A program made the translations under genes and the position numbers. The notes beneath the pieces were generated by a model. That model was not told where the DNA came from. It saw only the letters and a program-made list of their open reading frames with translations, and did not search any database. Source: an uncultured Actinomycetota bacterium (GTDB lineage Bacteria; Actinomycetota; Actinomycetes; JAFAQI01). Taken from it: DNA of 64,000 bases. This document shows positions 26,783 to 64,000 of the stretch, in pieces (position 1 is the stretch's first letter; every line of letters begins with the position of its first letter). The DNA lies in NCBI GenBank assembly GCA_963770565.1, contig CAVYQE010000011.1, forward strand, positions 480,001 through 544,000, written 5' to 3'.

Positions 26783-26856
26783 GGTCCCATAGCTCAGTTG
26801 GCTAGAGCGCCTCGCTTACAACGAGGAGGTCGCAGGTTCGAGCCCTGCTGGGACCA
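26783..26856 (+). tRNA. tRNA-Val (anticodon TAC)
   Basis: Acceptor GGTCCCA/TGGGACC, D-arm AGCTCAGTTGGCTAGAGC, anticodon arm CCTCG-CTTACAA-CGAGG, T-loop GGTTCGAG; CCA not encoded. Confidence 0.96.
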
Positions 26857-53079: not shown

Positions 53080-53191
53080 GGGGTCCTGAGCTCCTCGTGC
53101 AGTGGGCGCCGCTCACGTGCGCCCGTCGTTTGACTCTCTTGAGCGTAGGCGGCGCTGGCTCGGCGCTGATCTTCGCCGTACCCTGATCGTG

Positions 53192-53576
<385 letters not shown>

Positions 53577-53620
53577 TTCTAGGCCTGTGACCTGGGGTTT
53601 TACCTGGACCAAGATCGCTA

Positions 53621-53639
53621 AGTCCGCGAATAGTCCGCG
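53621..53639 (+). repeat. Putative integrase arm-type sites, left
   Basis: AGTCCGCG at 53621 and 53632 (11-bp spacing). Confidence 0.7.
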
Positions 53640-53656
53640 GGAACTTCGGAGAGAGT

Positions 53657-54734
53657 TCAGTCGGTCGCTCGGAGCGCCGCGTCCAGAACGCCGCGGCCCT
53701 CTTCCTCACTCGCGGGGAACAGGTGCCCGTAGGTGTCGAGGGTCTCGACGATGGAGGCGTGGCCGAGTCTGTCCTGGATGGTCTTGGGGTGCAAGTTGGC
53801 TGCGATCAGGGCTGACGCGTAGAAGTGGCGCAGGTCGTGGAACCGGGTGCCGGTCGGTAGCCCGGCGGTCTCGACGGCGGCGCGCCATCGGTCGCCGAAT
53901 GATGAGCGACGCACTGGGCCTTTCAGACGGTTGGTGATGAGCAAGCCGCTGTCGCCGGTCGGCCAGTCGCGAAGGTGCTGGGCGATCGCGTCGAGCAGTC
54001 CGTCGTCGGTCGGCACGGTGCGCCGCGACGCCCGGGTCTTGAGTGGCGCGAGGTGCGGGATATCACCGTTGCCGGTGAGCTGCTCCTCGACGTAGATACG
54101 CCGGCGCTCGAAGTCGACCCGGCTGGTCAGCAGACCGAGCGCCTCGCCCTGGCGCAGACCTGCGGCTGCGCCTAGCAGGACCGCGATTGCATATCGAGGC
54201 GTGATGGCGCTCGTCGAGGGCAAGAACCGCGTGCGGTGCCAGCGGCTCGACGACACGGGGCTCGACGCGGGGGAGCGGTACTCGCGAGCAGGGGTTCGCG
54301 GCGATCAGGTCATCGTCGACCGCCGACTGCATGATCGAGCGAAGCACTGCGTACGCGGTCTGCGTGGTGCTTGGCGCGAGACGGCTCGAGAGCTCGGCGA
54401 CGACCGCTTTCATGTCGGGGCGGCGTAGCGATGCGAGGGTGCGCCGGCCGATCAGCGGAAGGATGTGCGTGCGTAGGTGTGCGCGGTAGAGGTACTGGGA
54501 GTTGGGTCGCAGGTGGACCTGCGCCGGCAGCCACCGCTGCTCGACGTAGTCAGCGAGAGCGATGCGACCGGCGCTCGGGTCGACGTAGGTGCCGGTGACG
54601 AGGCCGGTCGTCATCTCGTCGAGCCAGCGTTGTGCGGCGGCCTTGCGGTCGAAGTGGCGGGCTCGCTCTCGACCTGATGGGTCGTGATAGCGGGCTCGCC
54701 AGTGGCCGTCCGGTCGTCGCTGAATGCTGGCCAA
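53657..54734 (-). pseudogene. Tyrosine integrase split by an apparent 1-nt insertion near 54215
   Basis: N-terminal half (MASIQRRPDGHWRARY, SAM-like domain) and catalytic half (LRQGE, PLKT, HDLRH, LGH, TYGH) lie in different frames. Could be a real mutation or a sequencing error. Confidence 0.85.
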
Positions 54735-54857
54735 GCCCTACCTCCGTCGAGGCGCGCACGCTAGCGACGGGTGCGCTGTCTTTGTGCTGGAGTCGAGCAA
54801 CATGTGGATGAGCCCAGGAAGTTGTGGATAGTCGGTCTGACGCCGCGACAGCGGGAG

Positions 54858-55040
54858 TCAGGCGCCCCCGGCCGGTGTGACCCGTCCCGCGGTGATGAAG
54901 GCCTCCAGGTCGGCGGTGTCGATGCGGACGTGGCTGCCGAGCTTGACGTAGGGGATTCGTCGCTCGGCGATCAGTCGGCGGATGAAGCGGGTCTTGGTCG
55001 CGAGACGCTCGGCGGCCTGGTCGACGGTCAGCAGGGTCAT
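54858..55040 (-). CDS. Excisionase-family HTH protein
   Basis: LLTVDQAAERL..IRRLI....IPYVKLG..VRI (HTH_17-like); AAGGAG RBS; upstream of the integrase. Confidence 0.88.
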   Translation of the reverse strand: MTLLTVDQAAERLATKTRFIRRLIAERRIPYVKLGSHVRIDTADLEAFITAGRVTPAGGA

Positions 55041-55087
55041 GGCGTGCTCCTTCAGGTTGTGACGGTGAGAACACGGTTAGTGCGGGG

Positions 55088-55367
55088 CGTCCCCACGAAC
55101 GTCCCCGCGAACGTCCCCACCGCAGGTCAGGACGCTGCGGTGAGGCGTCTCGACCGGGGTCGGAGCGGTGGACATGAAGGCGAGCATGCGCGTGAGGCGT
55201 ACCGCTGGGCGTACCGGTTGCCGTACCGCCCGGCGTACCGGTTGGTGTGTTTTCAGCGGGCGGCAAGTGCTCATGCGGCAGCGTGCACTCGGGGTGTACC
55301 CCCGGACGTACCCCGAGGTCCGCTGATCAGGTGGGGGTACGTCTGGGGGTACGCCTGGGGGTACGCC
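55088..55367. repeat. Four clusters of 12-bp-period repeats with a CGT(A/C)CC core
   Basis: 3 copies at 55088-55123, 4 at 55198-55245, 2 at 55295-55318, and 3 inverted copies (TGGGGGTACGYC) at 55332-55367. Confidence 0.85.
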
Positions 55368-55437
55368 TGGTGATTGTGACTAAGCAGCCCGACTGAGTAT
55401 GGTGGTCAGCGACGCCGCGCGGCCCTACGCTGGTTGT

Positions 55438-55668
55438 GTGCTCTTCGACCGCATCACCATCGAGCCCGACCTCATGGCCGGGCAGCCCTGCATACGCGGG
55501 CTGCGGATCCCGGTCGCGACCGTCGTCGCGATGGTCGCCGACGGCATGACGGTCGAGGAGATCCTCACCGACCTTCCCGAGCTCGAAGCCGAGGACATCG
55601 CGCAGGCGCTTCGCTACGCCGCGGCCGCCGTCCGGGAGCGCGAGCTGCCCTTGCGTCACCCGGCGTGA
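55438..55668 (+). CDS. DUF433 family antitoxin
   Basis: DRITIEPDLMAGQPCIRGLRIPV..ILTDLPELEAEDI..ALRYAA. Confidence 0.88.
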   Translation: MLFDRITIEPDLMAGQPCIRGLRIPVATVVAMVADGMTVEEILTDLPELEAEDIAQALRYAAAAVRERELPLRHPA

Positions 55669-56033
55669 GGTTCCTGGTCGATGCAAACCTCTCGCCGCGG
55701 CTAGCCGCGAGCCTTGCTCACGCCGGGCACGACGCCGTCCATGTGTCCGATGTAGGGATGAGCCGCGCGACCGACACCGAGATCCTGGACATGGCCGACG
55801 GACAGGACCGGGTGGTCGTCTCGGCCGACACCGACTTCGGCACCCTGCTCGCGGTCAGCAACCGACGCGGGCCGTCGGTGCTGCTCGTCCGGTTCACCAG
55901 CCCGCGGCGCGTGGAGCAGGTCGCGTCGGTGGTTCATGTGAACCTGCCGGCCGTCGCCGAATCGCTCGAGGCGGGTGCGGTTGTGGTGCTGGAGGATGAC
56001 CGGGTCAGGATTCGCTCGCTGCCGATGCGGTAG
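55665..56033 (+). CDS. DUF5615 / VapC45-like PIN-domain toxin
   Basis: RFLVDANLS, DAVHV, D.EI and VSADTDFG; GTGA overlap with the DUF433 gene. Confidence 0.87.
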   Translation: MRFLVDANLSPRLAASLAHAGHDAVHVSDVGMSRATDTEILDMADGQDRVVVSADTDFGTLLAVSNRRGPSVLLVRFTSPRRVEQVASVVHVNLPAVAESLEAGAVVVLEDDRVRIRSLPMR

Positions 56034-56226
56034 CCGGCCTCGACACGCCCGACCCCGTGCAAATTTCTCAACTTTCTTCTCATCTCAACTTCGACTCACT
56101 GTCACACTCCGCCTTTTTCCTCTACTTCCCAACGCTTTCCGCCACTTCCACCCTTCGATCTACCGCTCGTCTGACCGTCCCACGGCACCGGCAGACATGT
56201 GCATTTCCAATGCGTACGGTCACCGC

Positions 56227-58995
56227 ATGTTGTCGACCTCGAAGATCGGAACCGCGTCCTGGCGGTACTACTCCAACCAGGTGCAGCGCGGTGTGTGCGA
56301 GTACTACCTGGGTGTCGGGGAGGCCCCTGGCCGCTGGCAGGGCCGCGGCGTCGAAGCCCTCGGGCTAGAACCGAGAGCCGTTGTCGGCGAGCGGGAGCTG
56401 GAGGCGCTGTTCGGTCGCGCGCTGCACCCCACGACCCGTCAGCGACTGGGTAGGGCGTGGCGCGCGGACGGGGTGACTGGCTATGACTTGTGTTTCTCGG
56501 CGCCGAAGTCGGTCAGCGCGTTGTGGGCGGTCGGTGAGGGCAGTGTCCCGGGTGAGGTGATGGCGGCGCACCGCGCTGCGGTGGCCACCGCGCTGGACTA
56601 CTTGGACAGCCATGCGTCGTTCTCTCGGGTCGGCACGAACGGGCACACCCAGGTCGGCACGGACGGGTTCGCCGCCGCGGTGTTTCCGCATCGCACCAGC
56701 CGGGCGGGGGACCCGCAGCTGCACTCCCACGCGCTGGTAGTGAACAAGCTCCGCTGCCCAGACGGCGGCTGGCGCACGATCGACGGGCACGAGATCTACG
56801 CGCACAAGAAGTCCGCGGGGACGGTGTATCAGGCCGCGTTGCGCAACGAGCTGACCGGCCGGCTCAACGTGTCATGGACACCGGTGTCGAAGGACGGTCA
56901 GGCGGAGATCGCCGGCGTCCCCACTGCGCTGATGAAGGCCTGGTCGAAACGGGCCGTGCAGGTGACCGGTGAGGCCGCCCCGGTGATCGACGCCTACGAG
57001 CAAGAGCTCGGGCGGCCGCTGTCCTCAGCGGAACGCACCGCGGTGCTGAAGGTCGCGGTGCTGAAGACTCGGCCGGGGAAGGACCCGGTCGACGTCGTCG
57101 CGCTCTCCGACCGGTGGACAGCAGAAGCCGCCGAGCTGGGGTGGGACGGGCACGGCGTGCAACGGGAGATCGGCAGGGCGAGCCAGCCGCTACCGGGATC
57201 CGCTGAGCTGGCCGCCGAGATGGACCGAGCGGTCCTCGAGGCGGTCGGGGCGGCCGGGGCGCGGCGGGCGGTGTTCACCCGGTCCGATCTGGTGGCGGAG
57301 GTCGCGACCCGGCTGCCGAACGGCGGGTTCGACGCGAGCCTCGTCCGCACGCTGGTCGAGCAACTCACCGATCACGCCGTCGGCACGCCCGATACCGTCA
57401 CGTTGCGCCCTCAGGTCGACGGATGTCGCCGTGGCTCCGACGCCCGCTATGCCTCCCGGGCAACGGTGGATGCGGAGCTGCGGGTCCTCGGCGTCACTTC
57501 TGGCGGCCGGGCGGCGGGTCTCGCGGCGCTCGACCCGGCCCAGGTCCGGCAGGTCGCGAAGCGCCACGGATTGGACGGGTCGCAGCAGGCAGCACTCGTC
57601 CAGGTCGCCGGGAGCGGTGACGCGGTCTCGGTGCTGGTCGCCCCGGCCGGGACCGGGAAGACCACCGCGCTGGGCGCGGCGGTCGAGGCGTGGCAGGCCG
57701 ACGGTTACCGCATTGTGGGGCTCGCACCGTCGGCCCGCGCCGCCGCCGAACTCCGCGACGCCACTGGCACTGCTGCGGACACCGTCGCGAAGTTCCTCCA
57801 CGAACACGACAAGCCGACCCGGCGAGGCGGACGCTGGGACATCGACCCGTACCGGCTCAACGCCGGGGTCGTGATGATCGTCGACGAAGCCTCCATGCTC
57901 GCTACCGCCGAACTTGACCGGCTGACCCAGGCGACGGGGGCGGCCGGCGCGAAGCTGCTGCTGGTCGGTGACCCAGCCCAGATCGGTGCCGTCGACGCGG
58001 CCGGCGGGATGCTCCCCGTCCTCGCCCACCGCCTCGATGCGCCGACCCTGGACACGGTGCACCGGTTCACCGAGCCCTGGGAACGGCATGCCTCCCTCCG
58101 ACTCCGGCGCGGTGACCCGACCGTCATCGACGACTACCTCGCCGCCGGCCGGGTCCACCACTGCCCAGATGAGTCCGCGGCCTATCAGGCAGTCCTCGCC
58201 GCTTACCTCGACGCGAGCACGGCAGGACGCAGGGTGTTGATGCTCGCCCGGACCCACCACGACGTCGACACCCTGAACACCCTCGCCCGCGCGCACGCGA
58301 TCGAGACCGGGCAGGTTCACGGACCGGTCCTGCTCGACGGGCCAGTCGAGTGGCGGGCCGGGGACCGGCTCCGCGCCACCCGCAACAACCGCACGATCAG
58401 CGTCGGCGCCGACTACCTGCGCAACGGTGAACGGTTCACCGTGCTCGGGGCTGACCGTCACGGACTGCACGTCCTAACCGTTGACGGCGGCCAGACCGCG
58501 CGACTCCCCGCCGAGTACGTGGCCGCACACAGCACCTACGGGTGGGCGACGACGATCGACGCCGCGCAAGGCGCCACCGTCGACCATGCGATCCTGCTCG
58601 CCCGACCCGGCATCGACCGCGAACACCTCTACGTCGGGCTCACCCGCGGCCGAAACGCCAACCACGTGATCGTCGCCCAGCCCACCAGCGACGTCGATCA
58701 CCACGGCCTGCCGAAAGCAGGGGTGCCTCGGGCGGCTCGGGAAGTCCTTGCTGACGCACTCAGTGGCAGCGGCGTCCAGCAAGCCGCCCACACCCGGCTC
58801 CCCGAGCACCAACAAGTCGAGCCGGCCGCAAAGCCAACAACAGCTCGGCCCATCGTTCGGCGGCCAAGACCGGCACGAGTGCCGCTCCGCCGGATCGAAC
58901 GGCCCCAGCGCACCATGGAACCCGACCACCACTACCGCGGCCTCACACACGACCACGGGCTCGACCAAGGACGCGACATGGGCCGCGGACGATAA
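56227..58995 (+). CDS. MobF (TrwC-type) relaxase fused to a RecD-like helicase
   Basis: N-terminal YY...YY, YDLCFSAPKSVS, HUH motif HRTSRAGDPQLHSH, AWSKR; Walker A APAGTGKT, DEASM, GDPAQ, AQGATVD and YVGLTRGR. Confidence 0.93.
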   Translation: MLSTSKIGTASWRYYSNQVQRGVCEYYLGVGEAPGRWQGRGVEALGLEPRAVVGERELEALFGRALHPTTRQRLGRAWRADGVTGYDLCFSAPKSVSALWAVGEGSVPGEVMAAHRAAVATALDYLDSHASFSRVGTNGHTQVGTDGFAAAVFPHRTSRAGDPQLHSHALVVNKLRCPDGGWRTIDGHEIYAHKKSAGTVYQAALRNELTGRLNVSWTPVSKDGQAEIAGVPTALMKAWSKRAVQVTGEAAPVIDAYEQELGRPLSSAERTAVLKVAVLKTRPGKDPVDVVALSDRWTAEAAELGWDGHGVQREIGRASQPLPGSAELAAEMDRAVLEAVGAAGARRAVFTRSDLVAEVATRLPNGGFDASLVRTLVEQLTDHAVGTPDTVTLRPQVDGCRRGSDARYASRATVDAELRVLGVTSGGRAAGLAALDPAQVRQVAKRHGLDGSQQAALVQVAGSGDAVSVLVAPAGTGKTTALGAAVEAWQADGYRIVGLAPSARAAAELRDATGTAADTVAKFLHEHDKPTRRGGRWDIDPYRLNAGVVMIVDEASMLATAELDRLTQATGAAGAKLLLVGDPAQIGAVDAAGGMLPVLAHRLDAPTLDTVHRFTEPWERHASLRLRRGDPTVIDDYLAAGRVHHCPDESAAYQAVLAAYLDASTAGRRVLMLARTHHDVDTLNTLARAHAIETGQVHGPVLLDGPVEWRAGDRLRATRNNRTISVGADYLRNGERFTVLGADRHGLHVLTVDGGQTARLPAEYVAAHSTYGWATTIDAAQGATVDHAILLARPGIDREHLYVGLTRGRNANHVIVAQPTSDVDHHGLPKAGVPRAAREVLADALSGSGVQQAAHTRLPEHQQVEPAAKPTTARPIVRRPRPARVPLRRIERPQRTMEPDHHYRGLTHDHGLDQGRDMGRGR

Positions 58996-59080
58996 CAACG
59001 ACCTATTCGACGGCCCGGGACACACACGAATCGCTCCGAGCCGGCGCTATCGCTCGCATGATTACTGACACGATGCAAAC

Positions 59081-59458
59081 ATGCCGATGATGGCGGTCAC
59101 GTCCTCAACAGCCGGTCGGCGGCATGTAGCCGATCCTTCAGCCGCGGATGTTGTGGCTGCTATCCGGGCGCTCGACGGAGAGGGTGAGGTTGAACTCGAT
59201 GCACCCGGTCATGGCTGGCTCGGCGTGGCGGGAGGGCCGGACAAGTACTTCCTCGGCTACTGCCGGGAGGGCGATGGCGCGATCTTGCAAGCTCGTGCCG
59301 TGGAGTCGGTCGGCGGCACCGTCGAGATGGTGATCGGAGGCCAACCCACCTCAATCGAAGCCGAGTACACGGTCACTCTGGATGCGGCAACGGCGGCCGT
59401 CCTGCACTTCTTGGAGACAGGTGAGGCCGACCCCGCCATCGGCTGGGAGCAGATGTAG
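59081..59458 (+). CDS. Imm1-like immunity protein
   Basis: Small acidic protein with C-terminal VTLDAATAAVLHFLETGEADPAIGW, resembling the Imm1 pattern. Confidence 0.65.
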   Translation: MPMMAVTSSTAGRRHVADPSAADVVAAIRALDGEGEVELDAPGHGWLGVAGGPDKYFLGYCREGDGAILQARAVESVGGTVEMVIGGQPTSIEAEYTVTLDAATAAVLHFLETGEADPAIGWEQM

Positions 59459-59641
59459 AGGTGCGATAGGGAACGACGCACTCTGTCCGGCCTACCGACG
59501 CGAGGCGTCCGATCCTCGCCGGCGCTATTCGACGCGGCGTTGCGAGATCATCCCCCTTCAGCGGATGGATGATCCGTCGCGGCATGAAGGGACGGCGTAC
59601 CGTTCGGGGTTCGGAGCCGGTGGCTCAGATATCGCTGGAGT

Positions 59642-60172
59642 GTGAGGAGACTGGGCATGTCAGCAGATGACGCAGACGAAGCGGATGACGAAATCCTGCG
59701 TGGCTTCCTCAGAGCCCAGCGCGAATCGGTATTGGCAATCGTCGAGGGGCTCGGCGAGGACGCGTGGCACCGGTCAGTCGTACCCACCGGCTGGACGCCG
59801 GCTGGGTTAGTGGAACACCTGGGCGGCGCCGAATGGCACTGGTTTCAGGGCGTCGTAGCGGGCAAGCAGCCGGAGTTGCCGGGCGACGTCGAGGAGGATC
59901 AGGTGCCTTACGACCCCATGTCGGTGGTGTTCACCTCAGACGCGTCCCCCGCGGAGATCACTACCTTCTACCGCGACCAGTGCGCGCAGTCGGAGGATGT
60001 GCTGGCGACCACAGCACTGTCGGCGTCGCCACTCGGTAAGCATGGCCGATACGAGCCGCCAAATGTTCGTTGGGTTGTACTGCACATGATCGAGGAGACC
60101 GCACGTCATGCCGGGCATCTGGACATCGCTCGGGAGCTTCTCGACGGCACGGTTCGGCAGGGCGGCCGGTGA
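59642..60172 (+). CDS. DinB/DUF664 family protein
   Basis: GFLRAQR, GLVEHLGGAEWHWF and HMIEETARHAGHLDIARELLDG. Confidence 0.88.
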   Translation: MRRLGMSADDADEADDEILRGFLRAQRESVLAIVEGLGEDAWHRSVVPTGWTPAGLVEHLGGAEWHWFQGVVAGKQPELPGDVEEDQVPYDPMSVVFTSDASPAEITTFYRDQCAQSEDVLATTALSASPLGKHGRYEPPNVRWVVLHMIEETARHAGHLDIARELLDGTVRQGGR

Positions 60173-60537
60173 TGCGGCGCCTGTGTTTTCCTCCGTGAGC
60201 TCGCCGCCGTCGAGAGCAACACGCTTAAGGATCCCGGTCAAACCGTTCCCGCCGCCGCCCGGATCAGCGCAGTGCGGATCCCACCGACGACCGCTCTCAT
60301 CAACCATGGGCTGGATGGGATCGTCCCGAGTTCCGCTCGGCAGCTGATCACTGACCGTCGCTGGGAAGAGCGGTGATACCGAACAGACGTGCCGTTCTGC
60401 ATCTTTCGTGACGAGGGCGTCAATCGACCAGAACGGCATTACTTCTCGTCGTTCGGTCTACGCCGGGCGGACGGTTGGGGGATGGCGATGGGGGACCCTC
60501 CTCGGCCGGGCACGGCACCCGGCCAAGGCCGAAGCGT

Positions 60538-60852
60538 CTAGCGCGGTGCTTGCAGCACCATAAGGCGCCCCTGAGCATTCACCCCGAGCACGCCGCCGTT
60601 CCATACGCTTGGCGCGCAGGGTGCTGCGGCGTTGTGATCAAAGGTGACCGATATGACGTCCACTTTCGGTCGGCTTTCGGCGCGGTCGTAAAGCTTCACC
60701 TCGAAGGTGTGTGGTCCGGCGGTGTGGATGGTTTCGCCTAGCCGCGTGCCGGGGTTGCCGCAGTATCCAACGAAGCAAGCGACGATGTGCCCGTGTGGAT
60801 GGCTGCGCGCCCATACGTAGGTGCTGAGTACTACGCCTTGCCACGGCGCCAT
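60538..60852 (-). CDS. Hypothetical protein or gene fragment
   Basis: 104-aa ORF with protein-like composition; family not recognised. Confidence 0.35.
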   Translation of the reverse strand: MAPWQGVVLSTYVWARSHPHGHIVACFVGYCGNPGTRLGETIHTAGPHTFEVKLYDRAESRPKVDVISVTFDHNAAAPCAPSVWNGGVLGVNAQGRLMVLQAPR

Positions 60853-61080
60853 CGCACCTTCACGCCGCTGAGTCGGCGCTACAGCCCGGCATCAACGCGA
60901 AGACCAGCCCGATAGCCGCGAAGCCATACAACGGAGATCGCACCTGGCAAGTTTGGCTGACCGGCTGGCCCTCGACGGTCACGATCCGGACTCATTCGGG
61001 CTCTGCGAACGGTGCGCCAGAACGGCACGTATGGATCACCTACACCACGCGAGGGCGGCCCACTACGAACGCTCGTGCTC

Positions 61081-61557
61081 CTACGGCGGCGGGGCCACAT
61101 TTAGGCGCGCAGTCGCGAGCGTCGCCAAGCCGCCAACGCAGGGCACGTTCTTCTTCGGGCGCGCGTTGTCGCACATCGCGTAGTTGATGGGAACACTGAC
61201 GCGGCCTGGGCGGGTCAGGAGCCAGCCATGATCCTGTCGCCGAAGAGGCGCACCAGCAGCCTTGTTGGCCAGCTGAAATATGTGAGGACAGCCCGACCGA
61301 CTGACGACGCGCACGACGTCGCCAACTTGCGCGTGGAGTTGCACGTCGCCGGTAACCGGCGTTGCGGCGCGATTGATGAGGAGTCGTGCGGTCGTACCTC
61401 GGCAAGGCCCAGGGCCGAGGGCGAGGGCAAGAGGCAATGCAGGGCGCGGGACCGGAGTAAACGTCACAGGACGAGTGACGCTGGGCGACGACGCTGCACC
61501 ACTACACGCGGCGACGAGAAGCGTGAGCGAAAGGCCCGCAAAGACGCGCACTCTCAT
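61081..61557 (-). CDS. Putative lipoprotein
   Basis: MRVRVFAGLSLTLLVAAC lipobox; four further Cys. Confidence 0.65.
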   Translation of the reverse strand: MRVRVFAGLSLTLLVAACSGAASSPSVTRPVTFTPVPRPALPLALALGPGPCRGTTARLLINRAATPVTGDVQLHAQVGDVVRVVSRSGCPHIFQLANKAAGAPLRRQDHGWLLTRPGRVSVPINYAMCDNARPKKNVPCVGGLATLATARLNVAPPP

Positions 61558-61719
61558 GCCCGTAAGACTCGCACGCAGCAACATCGGTTCCAAGGGACTT
61601 GATGATGACCAGGTGCCTCCGGGCCGACGCAAGAGAAGGTAACGCCGGTTAAGGTCGGCGAGCAGAAAGGCCAAATCGCGAATGCGGAACCTACAGACCA
61701 ACTCGATGATCCGCGCGAA

Positions 61720-61856
61720 AGTCCGCGAGGTCGGAGACAATCTGTACTTAGCCGCACCTCGCACAGGCGGCCTGTAGGAAATCAACTGGCGGCTCGGCGG
61801 TCCCGCGAGTCCGCGACAAGTCCGCGACAATTTCAGCAGTCCGCCGAAAGTCCGCG
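61720..61856 (+). repeat. Putative integrase arm-type sites, right
   Basis: AGTCCGCG at 61720, 61808, 61819 and 61849; variant AGTCCGCC at 61838. Confidence 0.72.
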
Positions 61857-61966
61857 AAAAACCGGACATTCCCGGCAGCCGACGGTCACTGGCGGTCAAG
61901 GTGTTGCCGCAGGTCGGGCCCGTAATTCGAGGAAAATGCCTGGTCAGCCAATCGCTCCGGAGGCAT

Positions 61967-61992
61967 CCCGGCTTACAGGCCAACTCGTCCGC
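61967..61992 (+). repeat. attR core (duplicate of the rnpB 3' end)
   Basis: 26/26 identity to 53551-53576; flanking sequence diverges on both sides. Confidence 0.92.
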
Positions 61993-62243
61993 CACCCGAG
62001 CCCCCGACTAGCGTCTTCGCAGCATGCGACTAGGCAACGACGAGCGAGGAGCAGGCTTCACCCATCGTCTTCGCGCGGTGCCGCGATCCCGGGCGTCCAG
62101 CAGGTTATCGGTGTCGCTGAGTCGCCGTGCCACGTTGGAGATTCTCTTTTTGGCCTGCGAAGACCTGCGAAGCCGACGAGGATAGCCGCGTGGGAGCCCG
62201 TCCGCCCAGGCTCCCGCAGATCGAGTGCGGACAAGGAGTCGCC

Positions 62244-64000
62244 GTGTCGTACGCAGTTCTCGTTGCTCCCCAGACCCGTCCGCTGCGGCAGCCATTCACC
62301 GTTCATCAGCGAGCCTTTGTCGGGTTCGCGGCGCTTGCGCTCACGGCACTGACCGCGGCAGGTCTGCCGACGCTGTGGCCAGGTCACCCGGGTGGATCTC
62401 AGCCGCTCCCGGCCAGGGACGGCGTCAGCTCCCTGACGATGTCGAACCCGGCGCAACGCCTGACCGCGAGCTTCGGGTCGGGCGGCGCAACGGTCAGGTC
62501 TGATGGCGCTCGATTCACCCTTGGACTGACAGCCTTCGGCCGCGGTGCGCAGCTTCAGTCCGTCGCACCGGTCCAGCCACAGCTGCGGGACGGGATGATT
62601 CGCTACGCATATCCGGCTGCGGTGACCGAGACTTGGCGAAACGGACCCCTCGGGCTTGAGCAGGGCTTCGTTCTCTCGCAGCGGCCCGCCGGCAATGGAG
62701 CGCTGAGCATTGCCATGACTGCTCCGGCAACCTCGCTGCTATTGCGCGGCGCCGTGTTGCTGCCGGGTGGCCTGCGCTATGCCGGACTACGTGTGAGCGA
62801 CGCCAGCGGTCGGGTGCTGCATTCGTGGCTCGCGCTTGCGCACGGGCAGTTGCTGATCAAGGTGTCCGATCGCGGAGCGCATTACCCGGTACGGATCGAT
62901 CCGCTGGTGCAGCAGGCCAATGTGACCGCCAAGGATGGTGTGGTCGGGGACTACTTCGGGAGCAGCGTCGCAGTGTCCGGGCACACCCTGGTCGCGGGCG
63001 CTCCGTACCACAAGGTCGGTGTGAATTCGAACGAGGGCGCGGTGTACGTCTTCAGTGACCGCTCGGGTCATTGGAAGCAGATCGCCGAGCTCGCGGTGGC
63101 GGGCGGTTCGGCAAACCTGTATTTCGGCTCGACGGTCGGGATCTCCGGCAACACGATCGTCGCGAGCGCACCGTACGCGGGCGCGGCGAGCCAGGGCGCG
63201 CTGTACGTCTTCGGTGACGGCTCCGGCCGTTGGAAGCAGATCGCCGAACTGACCGCCTCAGACGCCGTGGCCGGCGACCAGCTCGGCCACTACTCCGTCG
63301 CGATCCAGGGCAAGACAATAGTCGCCGGCTCACCCGCACACGCAGTCAACTCAATCAGCGGTCAAGGGGCCGTGTATGTCTTCAACGAGCCTTCTGGTGG
63401 TTGGCACACGATGACGCAGAGCGCCGAGCTGAGCGAGGCACATGGGGCGCTCGACGATTGGGTTGGCTGGTCAGTGGGGATCTCCGGCAACACGATCGTG
63501 GCCGGCGCGCCCGCCCCGTACGAGGAGAGCAACCACCACGCGGCGGTGTTCGTCTTCACCAAGCGCTCAGGTCACTGGAAGCAGACGGGTGAGGTGCATC
63601 AGCGTGATGCCTCCATCAACAATGACATCGGCCAGGAGGTCGCGATCTCCGGCCACACGATCGCGGCGGGCGCACCGGAGTCCAACAACTTGTACATCTT
63701 CCAATCCGCCAGCGGCAAATGGAAGCAGACCGCGGACTTGACGTACAACGTGTGTGACTCCACCGAATGCTCGGGCGATTCGCTGGGCACTGCAGTCGCG
63801 TTTGCGGGCAACGCAATCGTTGCGGGTGCTGCTGCCGTTCGGAAGAACGACTACGTGGCCGCATTCCCCGAGTACCGGGAGTTCTCAGGCAAGTGGCGGC
63901 AGGTTGCGACGTTGTTTGCCGGCGCGAACCAGCACAGCACAGCGCAACGGTTCGCCGAGGCGCTCGCGAGCTCGGGCACCACCGTGGTGGCGGGTGTGTT
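62244..64000 (+). CDS. Secreted or surface FG-GAP repeat protein (runs off the window)
   Basis: Not in the ORF track. AAGGAG RBS then GTG at 62244; N-terminal hydrophobic segment; NGPLGLEQGF and YPVRIDPLV; repeats such as DYFGSSVAVSGHTLVAGAP...GAVYVF. Confidence 0.87.
   Translation, partial: MSYAVLVAPQTRPLRQPFTVHQRAFVGFAALALTALTAAGLPTLWPGHPGGSQPLPARDGVSSLTMSNPAQRLTASFGSGGATVRSDGARFTLGLTAFGRGAQLQSVAPVQPQLRDGMIRYAYPAAVTETWRNGPLGLEQGFVLSQRPAGNGALSIAMTAPATSLLLRGAVLLPGGLRYAGLRVSDASGRVLHSWLALAHGQLLIKVSDRGAHYPVRIDPLVQQANVTAKDGVVGDYFGSSVAVSGHTLVAGAPYHKVGVNSNEGAVYVFSDRSGHWKQIAELAVAGGSANLYFGSTVGISGNTIVASAPYAGAASQGALYVFGDGSGRWKQIAELTASDAVAGDQLGHYSVAIQGKTIVAGSPAHAVNSISGQGAVYVFNEPSGGWHTMTQSAELSEAHGALDDWVGWSVGISGNTIVAGAPAPYEESNHHAAVFVFTKRSGHWKQTGEVHQRDASINNDIGQEVAISGHTIAAGAPESNNLYIFQSASGKWKQTADLTYNVCDSTECSGDSLGTAVAFAGNAIVAGAAAVRKNDYVAAFPEYREFSGKWRQVATLFAGANQHSTAQRFAEALASSGTTVVAGV

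Follow-up and report, generated by a model that had tools for sequence, protein, structure and literature searches.

The 64,000-nucleotide (nt) stretch of DNA analysed here (the window) comes from the draft genome of an uncultured Actinomycetota bacterium (G000; 4,428,154 bases in 11 contigs), and in it an 8.4-kb element follows directly on rnpB, the gene for the RNA of RNase P. The gene lies on the forward strand at 53191-53576 and is complete and of bacterial type A. Its match to Rfam RF00010 covers 53197-53575 (+) and model positions 1-367 of 367, with 316.3 bits against a gathering score of 100, and the two ends pair as helix P1. It is the only rnpB of the genome. The last 26 nt of the gene, CCCGGCTTACAGGCCAACTCGTCCGC, at 53551-53576 are found again, identical, at 61967-61992, the two copies starting 8416 nt apart as an earlier note on this DNA had described. 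When up to three mismatches were allowed these were the only two copies genome-wide, the reversed control pattern giving none, and no further direct copy with up to seven mismatches was found in C11:530001-580000, on the contig that contains the window.

The left copy (53551-53576, +) forms the attL core of the element and the right copy (61967-61992, +), displaced from the end of rnpB, the attR core. The repeat begins at CCCGGCUU, whose complement, AAGUCCGGG, lies in the 5' part of rnpB; the pairing of the two we take to be helix P4, so that the attL core would hold the 3' strands of both P4 and P1. It spans the entire 3' strand of P1. Its final GTCCGC (53571-53576) pairs with GCGGAC (53191-53196), just 5' of the Rfam match, and the end of the repeat is therefore the end of the closing helix. 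With a full-length RF00010 match at attL, a 26-nt copy at attR and the integrase stop codon 80 nt from the repeat, the target has been regenerated and its fragment displaced. The sole tRNA gene in the window is a tRNA-Val at 26783, and the target of the island is rnpB, neither a tRNA nor a tmRNA gene.

For comparison with metagenomes we used the assembled Logan contigs of four runs. Three of these runs bear the label rhizosphere metagenome, the fourth names no organism, and none is known to come from the source sample; at best, 0.28 of the words are represented in a run. In run X2 a 918-nt contig spans 53356-54275, from the interior of rnpB into the integrase gene, and because this independent contig bridges the left junction the junction is not an artefact of the present assembly. 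At 53206, in the 5' strand of P1, the window reads CGAGTTGGCTGG against GGCCGG in relatives of the same genus, so that U-G takes the place of C-G opposite the repeat; in the metagenome contigs this position is C.

Genes and sites between the repeats

Domain scans bore out the gene content that had been read from the open reading frames (ORFs): an integrase, an excisionase, a toxin-antitoxin pair, a MobF relaxase-helicase and cargo all lie between the two repeats. Directly after rnpB the element supplies a terminator-like hairpin with a T-run (53577-53604, +; stem 53577-53597, then TTTT), which is kept in the related element L003; as a scan hit it is weak, with six hairpins found in the region and 3.4 expected. 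It is followed at 53611-53643 (+) by candidate arm-type (P') integrase sites, a block AAGATCGCTAAGTCCG.G..T.GTCC with two copies of the octamer AGTCCGCG 11 nt apart. Four related elements (those of the window, L003, G025 and G018) share 22 invariant columns in the non-coding stretch between the core and the integrase stop. The octamer recurs four times 110-250 nt before the right repeat, at 61720, 61808, 61819 and 61849, and together with a variant, AGTCCGCC, at 61838 these copies make up candidate arm-type (P) sites at 61720-61860 (+). Of the 15 copies in the window, six are no more than 270 nt from one or other repeat; by our own arithmetic roughly 0.1 would be expected there. Clustered and conserved in this way, the octamers would fit an attachment site of the lambda type, with P and P' arms in the circular form (attP).

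The tyrosine integrase is encoded on the reverse strand at 53657-54734 in two frames, an N part (54063-54734; PF22022 and PF14659) and a C part (53657-54256; PF00589, 8.2e-23), with a shift near 54214. All six catalytic residues (R35, K73, H140, R143, H166 and Y176, numbered within the C part) are present, and each is kept in 72-74 of 74 homologues. For the N-terminal arm-binding domain, no match to Arm-DNA-bind_4 was reported in this integrase, and the L003 homologue matches it with E = 0.16, below the cut-off. Beyond the integrase, also on the reverse strand, lies the gene for an excisionase (Xis) or recombination directionality factor (54858-55040; PF12728 HTH_17, 6.7e-13; TIGR01764 'excise', 59 bits with a cut-off of 28.8). 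Between this gene and the next, at 55195-55370, are iteron-like direct and inverted repeats that are candidates for an operator or an origin of transfer (oriT). They comprise CGTACCG-type units with a 12-nt period and three tandem TGGGGGTACGCC, with a 36-nt imperfect inverted repeat running across both.

The remaining genes, apart from the last, are on the forward strand. A DUF433 protein, an antitoxin-like partner (55399-55668; PF04255, 4.9e-24), overlaps by 4 nt the gene for a DUF5615/PIN-like, toxin-like partner (55665-56033; PF18480, 4.2e-26, and PF18478), and as two small adjacent genes with these domains they would fit a type II toxin-antitoxin pair. A further gene (56227-58995) encodes a MobF relaxase fused to a superfamily 1B helicase (TrwC, PF08751, 1.3e-79; AAA_30, PF13604, 7.5e-57), and the NCBIfam MobF model NF041492 aligns from residue 1 with 234.7 bits, the cut-off being 100. 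The cargo consists of an Imm1 immunity-protein family member (59081-59458; PF14430, 2.4e-9), a mycothiol-S-transferase/DinB family protein (59642-60172; PF04978, 1.4e-38) and two ORFs without a family, one of which, a 158-residue ORF on the reverse strand (61081-61557) without a Pfam family, has a lipoprotein-like N terminus (..LLVAAC.., read by eye). The G+C content is 0.675 in the element and 0.642 in its cargo part, and 0.70 to the left of the element.

Among the 10 ORFs scanned we found no type IV coupling protein (T4CP), FtsK/SpoIIIE translocase, VirB4-type ATPase or Rep initiator. With a MobF relaxase and neither coupling-protein nor mating-channel families in these ORFs, the element classes as an integrative mobilizable element (IME); the FtsK/SpoIIIE-type Tra with RepSA, RepAM or Prim-Pol that defines an actinomycete integrative and conjugative element (AICE) was not found in it. 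The proposal that it is mobilizable and would need a helper fits, since no T4CP, FtsK or Rep domain was found among its ORFs. The genome encodes TrwC relaxases at about ten loci and TraG-D_C coupling proteins at two, C2:759965 and C6:186640, each of the latter with a TrwC gene about 3 kb and an integrase about 6 kb away (C2:759965-766463 and C6:186640-193070). These two loci are candidate helpers, and nothing links either of them to this element. Several TrwC loci adjoin other tyrosine integrases (33-35% identical), among them C11:309024-315260, C2:788271-792168 and C6:70894-74941, so that the genome appears to hold a whole population of integrase-plus-relaxase elements with different integrases.

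Integrase homologues beside rnpB in other genomes

A scan with the catalytic part of the integrase, using one genome per species, gave 278 relatives, of which the best 80 loci were used, and rnpB was located with an nhmmer profile built from 27 relatives. Tallies over the relatives (rnpB copies, FG-GAP orthologues, and helper and integrase loci) include genomes G032 and G040, though no individual conclusion depends on these two. An rnpB gene was found in the locus for 67 of the 80 best homologues, and in 59 of these it has one or other of two fixed positions. In the convergent layout (28 loci), which is that of the window, rnpB is on the opposite strand with its 3' end less than 200 nt past the integrase gene, in practice 58-148 nt. 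In the co-directional layout (31 loci) rnpB is on the same strand and ends about 700 nt (<800) before the match to the catalytic domain, which is just ahead of the start of the integrase gene. The gene is farther off (1-9 kb) in the other eight loci. Of the 13 loci without a full rnpB, seven have the rnpB 3' motif beside the integrase, two of the seven being cut by a contig end. A search of these 13 with aragorn found no tRNA or tmRNA gene. In all five genomes checked the rnpB adjoining the integrase was the sole copy.

According to how the records are classified, Streptosporangiales (18/18), Jatrophihabitans and one Mycobacteriaceae metagenome-assembled genome (MAG) typically show the convergent layout, and Acidimicrobiia (29/38) the co-directional one. 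Single contigs are labelled Dormibacterota, Gammaproteobacteria and Burkholderiales. The MAG contigs with the latter two labels, L012 (Gammaproteobacteria) and L059 (Burkholderiales), carry a family integrase together with rnpB 3' fragments of actinobacterial type, and these labels may be binning errors. Of 29 rnpB loci from relatives of the window's genome, compared in a database with one G032 locus (L108), three have an integrase homologue no more than 500 nt from the gene (G018, G025 and, as a partial gene, G005), and in G010 one lies 7.8 kb away. Gene content varies around the integrase. A window-like MobF relaxase is present in nine of the 80 loci, the toxin-antitoxin pair and Imm1 are present in none, and L003 has the integrase (72-74%), the excisionase (60%) and the relaxase (62%) in common with the window.

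We calculated a maximum-likelihood tree of 85 rows, comprising 74 loci, the window, seven other integrases of the same genome and three phage integrases; loci with integrase frames shorter than 250 residues (L038, L040, L049, L070, L073 and L074) were omitted. The 77 rows of the family split from the genome's paralogues and the integrase of Micromonospora pMLP1 with a Shimodaira-Hasegawa-like approximate likelihood ratio test (SH-aLRT) value of 99. The window belongs to a clade of 28 rows (support 100), in 25 of which rnpB is convergent, directly adjacent in 23 and further off in two. A second clade of 49 rows is made up of the co-directional group, with 32 rows and a support of 97, and some scattered rows of the convergent layout. 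The closest named integrases are those of Corynephage 304L (42% identity), Rhodococcus phage Sleepyhead (39%) and pMLP1 (39%). They belong to the same fold family of tyrosine recombinases and, as in the window, have attP just downstream of the integrase gene, but all are less than 45% identical to it, whereas identities in the rnpB-linked set are 44-75%. The attP core annotated in 304L does not resemble rnpB, and the attP of pMLP1 looks like a tRNA T-arm. Some of the other integrases of the window's genome adjoin tRNA genes. We take the integrase to be one member of a deep Actinomycetota family whose members sit on different kinds of element and have the rnpB target in common.

Second copies, empty sites and attP-like contigs

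A second copy of the rnpB 3' end was found on the element side of 15 of the 67 loci, 1.3-10.6 kb away; many of the others have too little flanking sequence. In all 15 the identity starts 25-31 nt before the end of rnpB, as it does in the window, and extends either to the end of the gene or to about 60 nt beyond. The check that the earlier note had proposed, whether homologous integrases sit by rnpB with the same repeat, came out positive, with rnpB in the locus at 67 of 80 and a repeat of its 3' end at 15. In L034, L065 and L067 there are either two such copies or a first interval that is short, which would be expected of tandem or remnant elements. As to which att copy derives from the host, mismatches of the attL and attR copies of the P1 strand against the 5' strand favour the copy within the gene in three cases and attR in one, with one ambiguous, a distribution that drift of attR explains equally well.

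Nocardiopsis alborubida (L023) has a clade-mate of the window element, 9.9 kb long, between copies of a 36-nt repeat. Every Nocardiopsis genome examined (51 of 51) contains the 701 nt to the right of this element. At 29 other Nocardiopsis loci the distance from rnpB to that flank is below 300 nt in 13 and 0.47-1.3 kb in six, and in 10 the flank is not found within 1.5 kb. In four of the 13 the flank follows rnpB from its nucleotide 3-5 onwards, with a sequence that equals the left half of attL joined to the right half of attR. These four junctions show the classical picture of a bacterial attachment site (attB), and the site is polymorphic within the genus. The similarity of attL and attR in L023 runs about 60 nt past the exact 36-nt core, and its attP therefore also carries the region downstream of rnpB.

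Four contigs, L168, L169 and L170 from IMG/VR and the MAG contig L012, carry an integrase gene followed, 87-117 nt on, by about 30 nt of the rnpB 3' end, and in none of them did Rfam RF00010 detect an RNase P RNA. These fragment-only contigs look like attP forms. L168 has DUF2637 and FtsK/SpoIIIE genes beyond the fragment, and a helix-turn-helix regulator precedes its integrase. This gene order indicates the free form of an actinomycete conjugative element, or a plasmid, and, set against the content of the window, it places the same integrase family on at least two kinds of vehicle.

Some candidates were rejected. Three phage or plasmid hits to the last 60 nt of rnpB (MT835553, MT836823 and OY726028) were examined and dropped, as they hold a whole rnpB and no homologous integrase. 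Two of these records (L188, MT835553.1; L189, MT836823.1) are labelled 'UNVERIFIED Bacteriophage sp.' and the third (L190, OY726028.1) is a 21-kb Phocaeicola 'plasmid'; all three contain a complete RNase P RNA (244-294 bits), and none has a family integrase within 2.5 kb. The Streptomyces plasmid NZ_CP107792, with an integrase 31-38% identical, shows no rnpB-like stretch after the integrase gene. At three further loci, L126 (G005), L132 (G010) and L134 (G015), GTGACATCGGTGTGACATCG-type repeats and a GTTTCCGCAGGTCAG motif occur about 90-130 nt after rnpB, and these may be the arm region of another type of element, or a remnant, at the same site.

The DNA that follows rnpB differs even within the genus of the window. 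In a tblastx comparison of the 8-14 kb downstream of rnpB in 12 relatives, synteny was not conserved except in G002, which rejoins G000 at C11:563853, about 10 kb past its own rnpB, where the distance in G000 is 30 kb. Beyond the right end of the element, the DNA at 61993-64000 and on to C11:541993-563850, which begins with an FG-GAP_2 repeat protein gene from 62127 and has a G+C content of 0.658, is not syntenic in the relatives searched. Since synteny is absent until the point at which G002 rejoins, the roughly 22 kb that follow attR may have been acquired as well, though they contain no further att copy.

Reading of the element, its alternatives and its meaning

Taken together, these results lead us to read 53577-61966 as an integrative mobilizable element that was inserted by a lambda-type tyrosine integrase into the 3' end of the sole rnpB, and we would put the probability of this at about 0.88. 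That the integrase uses rnpB as attB, as had been proposed, is supported by the anatomy of the locus, the family-wide linkage, the repeats at 15 other elements, the empty sites in Nocardiopsis and the fragment-only contigs. The crossover position, the binding of arm sites, excision and mobilization we infer as follows. In the circular form attP would consist of the last ~26 nt of rnpB (the 3' strands of P1 and, presumably, P4), then the terminator-like hairpin, with arm-type AGTCCGCG repeats on both sides. Recombination with the identical stretch of a chromosomal rnpB would leave at attL a complete gene with a tail and a downstream hairpin of element DNA, and at attR a 26-nt remnant. Xis would reverse the integration. 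The MobF relaxase-helicase would nick an undefined oriT, the strand being exported through the coupling protein and mating channel of a helper, and the DUF433/DUF5615 pair would stabilise the element.

Mechanisms of this kind are already known. As in islands at the 3' ends of tRNA and tmRNA genes, a small RNA gene that is structured and conserved is entered in its 3' part, and the element's own copy of the 3' end regenerates the gene at attL while the fragment is shifted to attR. Also as in such islands, the integrase gene adjoins the regenerated gene, Xis is present, and the site can have tandem or remnant copies (L034, L065 and L067). Unlike them, the window element targets the gene of the RNase P ribozyme, and the segment that is swapped includes one strand of P1 and, as we assume, a strand of P4, a helix of the catalytic core.

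The closest parallel of target is Enterococcus phage phiEf11, which, according to a 2025 report, integrates in ffs, the gene for the 4.5S/signal recognition particle RNA, and is presented there as using a novel phage attachment site (PMC12540744). Among non-coding RNA targets that report lists tRNA/tmRNA and csRNA genes, and rnpB is not named. Like the window element, phiEf11 has a non-tRNA structural RNA gene as attB, its identity core is 27 nt as against 26 here, and its attP lies 74 nt from the end of the integrase gene, about 80 nt in the window (PMC12540744). It differs in using another RNA gene and in being a single phage of a Firmicute rather than an actinobacterial mobilizable island from a family spanning two classes. 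Judged by PMC3218068 and PMC3429521, pSAM2, SLP1 and pMEA300 share with the window element the host phylum and an integrase-excisionase module at one end. The FtsK/SpoIIIE and DUF2637 genes of L168 are typical of this type of actinomycete element, whereas the window element has a MobF relaxase in place of Tra and Rep. The targets reported there for actinobacterial conjugative elements are tRNA genes, except for an integrase clade called 'pSLS' whose site the text compared does not name (PMC3218068, PMC3429521). SGI1 resembles the window element in that it combines an integrase and an excisionase with a mobilization function, has no mating channel of its own, relies on a helper and sits in the 3' end of a conserved gene. 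It is different in its integrase, its target (trmE), its type of relaxase and its phylum.

We found no report of rnpB as an integration site in the full-text literature, subscription journals and the TIGER/Islander database lying outside the search. None is given in the consulted passages of PMC4256840, PMC2516327, PMC2705793, PMC2864759, PMC2824730 and PMC12424338, nor in those of PMC12540744, PMC12884075, PMC3218068, PMC3429521 and PMC9513070. The target and the integrase family appear new, the site of the 'pSLS' clade being unnamed in the text compared.

A number of observations weigh against our reading of the element. The empty site joining 53576 to 61993, which was to be looked for in relatives, did not turn up. 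None with the window's own right flank was found among the 40 relatives searched, and a BLAST comparison of this flank (61967-64000) with the relatives' rnpB loci, a database that includes one G032 locus (L108), gave no hit of 60 nt or more. Orthologues of the flanking FG-GAP gene (62127) in G001 are on contigs other than the rnpB contig. This absence we ascribe to the variability of the DNA downstream of rnpB among the relatives searched. The part shared with the four metagenome runs ends near 59000, the cargo at 59240-61600 is almost uncovered, and the whole element was not seen elsewhere. No oriT was identified in the element. Over the whole window AGTCCGCG is not enriched, with 15 copies against 8.5 expected, a count that 2 of 100 shuffles reach. 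Six of the 80 homologous loci (L005, L031, L038, L052, L072 and L076) have neither rnpB nor a fragment of it, two of them lacking room upstream. Finally, 304L and Sleepyhead nest within the second clade of the tree, on long branches and with weak support (88-91), and because these phages, with other attP cores, lie inside it, exclusivity of the family for rnpB is not established.

The integrase of the window moreover needs a frame change near 54214, and this bears on the most serious alternative, that the element entered at rnpB but is now a fixed and decaying remnant, with a real frameshift in its integrase and no autonomous excision. The base at 54214 is outside a homopolymer run, which makes a simple long-read error less obvious. 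The contigs of the four runs contain neither an excised nor an empty form (no joint of 53576 to 61993 and no circle junction), though assembled contigs drop rare forms and we do not count this as evidence. However, the base at 54214 is absent from the contigs in all four runs, and without it there is a stop-free frame of 358 residues with 72.6% identity over 354 residues, gapless, to the intact integrase of L003. Given this agreement between the runs, the frame break would be either an assembly error or private to the strain. The excisionase, relaxase and toxin-antitoxin frames are all open and the two 26-nt repeats are identical, so that on balance we find a decaying remnant unlikely. The earlier premise that the integrase has to be repaired holds in so far as two frames are present in the window; as all four runs read through, repair may not be needed.

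It is also conceivable that the element is self-transmissible, an AICE or an integrative and conjugative element, rather than mobilizable. L168, with an integrase of the same family, does carry an FtsK/SpoIIIE translocase, and two cargo ORFs of the window element belong to no family. The 10 ORFs scanned, however, include no FtsK_SpoIIIE, T4CP, VirB4-type or Rep family, and an element of 8.4 kb with a relaxase gene of 2.8 kb has no room for a mating channel, which makes self-transmission very improbable. Still less probable is that integrase and rnpB are neighbours by descent, as in an old fixed island, rather than by repeated site-specific insertion. The two layouts do track taxonomy closely, Acidimicrobiia being mostly same-strand and Streptosporangiales convergent, but occupied and empty sites occur within the single genus Nocardiopsis, just three of 29 loci of the window's relatives have the integrase within 500 nt of rnpB, gene content varies (the relaxase in nine of 80 loci, the toxin-antitoxin pair and Imm1 in none), and fragment-only forms exist. 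A chance match or misassembly of the repeat, for which nothing speaks beyond the draft status of an assembly in 11 contigs, can practically be dismissed, given exactly two copies in 4.4 Mb with none of the reversed control, X2 contigs that span the left junction and the same architecture in dozens of genomes.

If the integrative mobilizable element is what it seems, rnpB would join tRNA, tmRNA and the more recent ffs/csRNA as the fourth class of small RNA genes that are targeted, the target in this case being an essential ribozyme gene. This would account for a variable region beside rnpB in many actinobacterial genomes, which island finders restricted to tRNA and tmRNA genes would miss. In Acidimicrobiia the layout would place the integrase directly downstream of a strongly expressed RNA gene. 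A further question it raises is how much sequence divergence RNase P can bear in helices P1 and P4 once one of their strands comes from an incoming element.

Going beyond the window, we lean, by a narrow degree, towards a broader proposal, in which rnpB is the standing target of a deep and undescribed integrase family. This family would extend over at least two classes of Actinomycetota, with stray contigs labelled Dormibacterota, and would be carried by elements that differ in mechanism, both MobF mobilizable islands and conjugative elements of the FtsK/TraB type. As each insertion replaces one strand of P1, and part of what we take to be a strand of P4, by DNA of the element, the elements must track the sequence of the host ribozyme, and so attP would double as a determinant of host range. 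To our knowledge few integration sites, such as those of phiC31 and pSAM2, are in use in actinomycetes. Intact members of the family with mapped attB, attL and attR, for example that of Nocardiopsis, are candidate integration vectors, and the family as a whole would supply site-specific vectors for an attB that is single-copy, essential and near-universal in actinomycetes.

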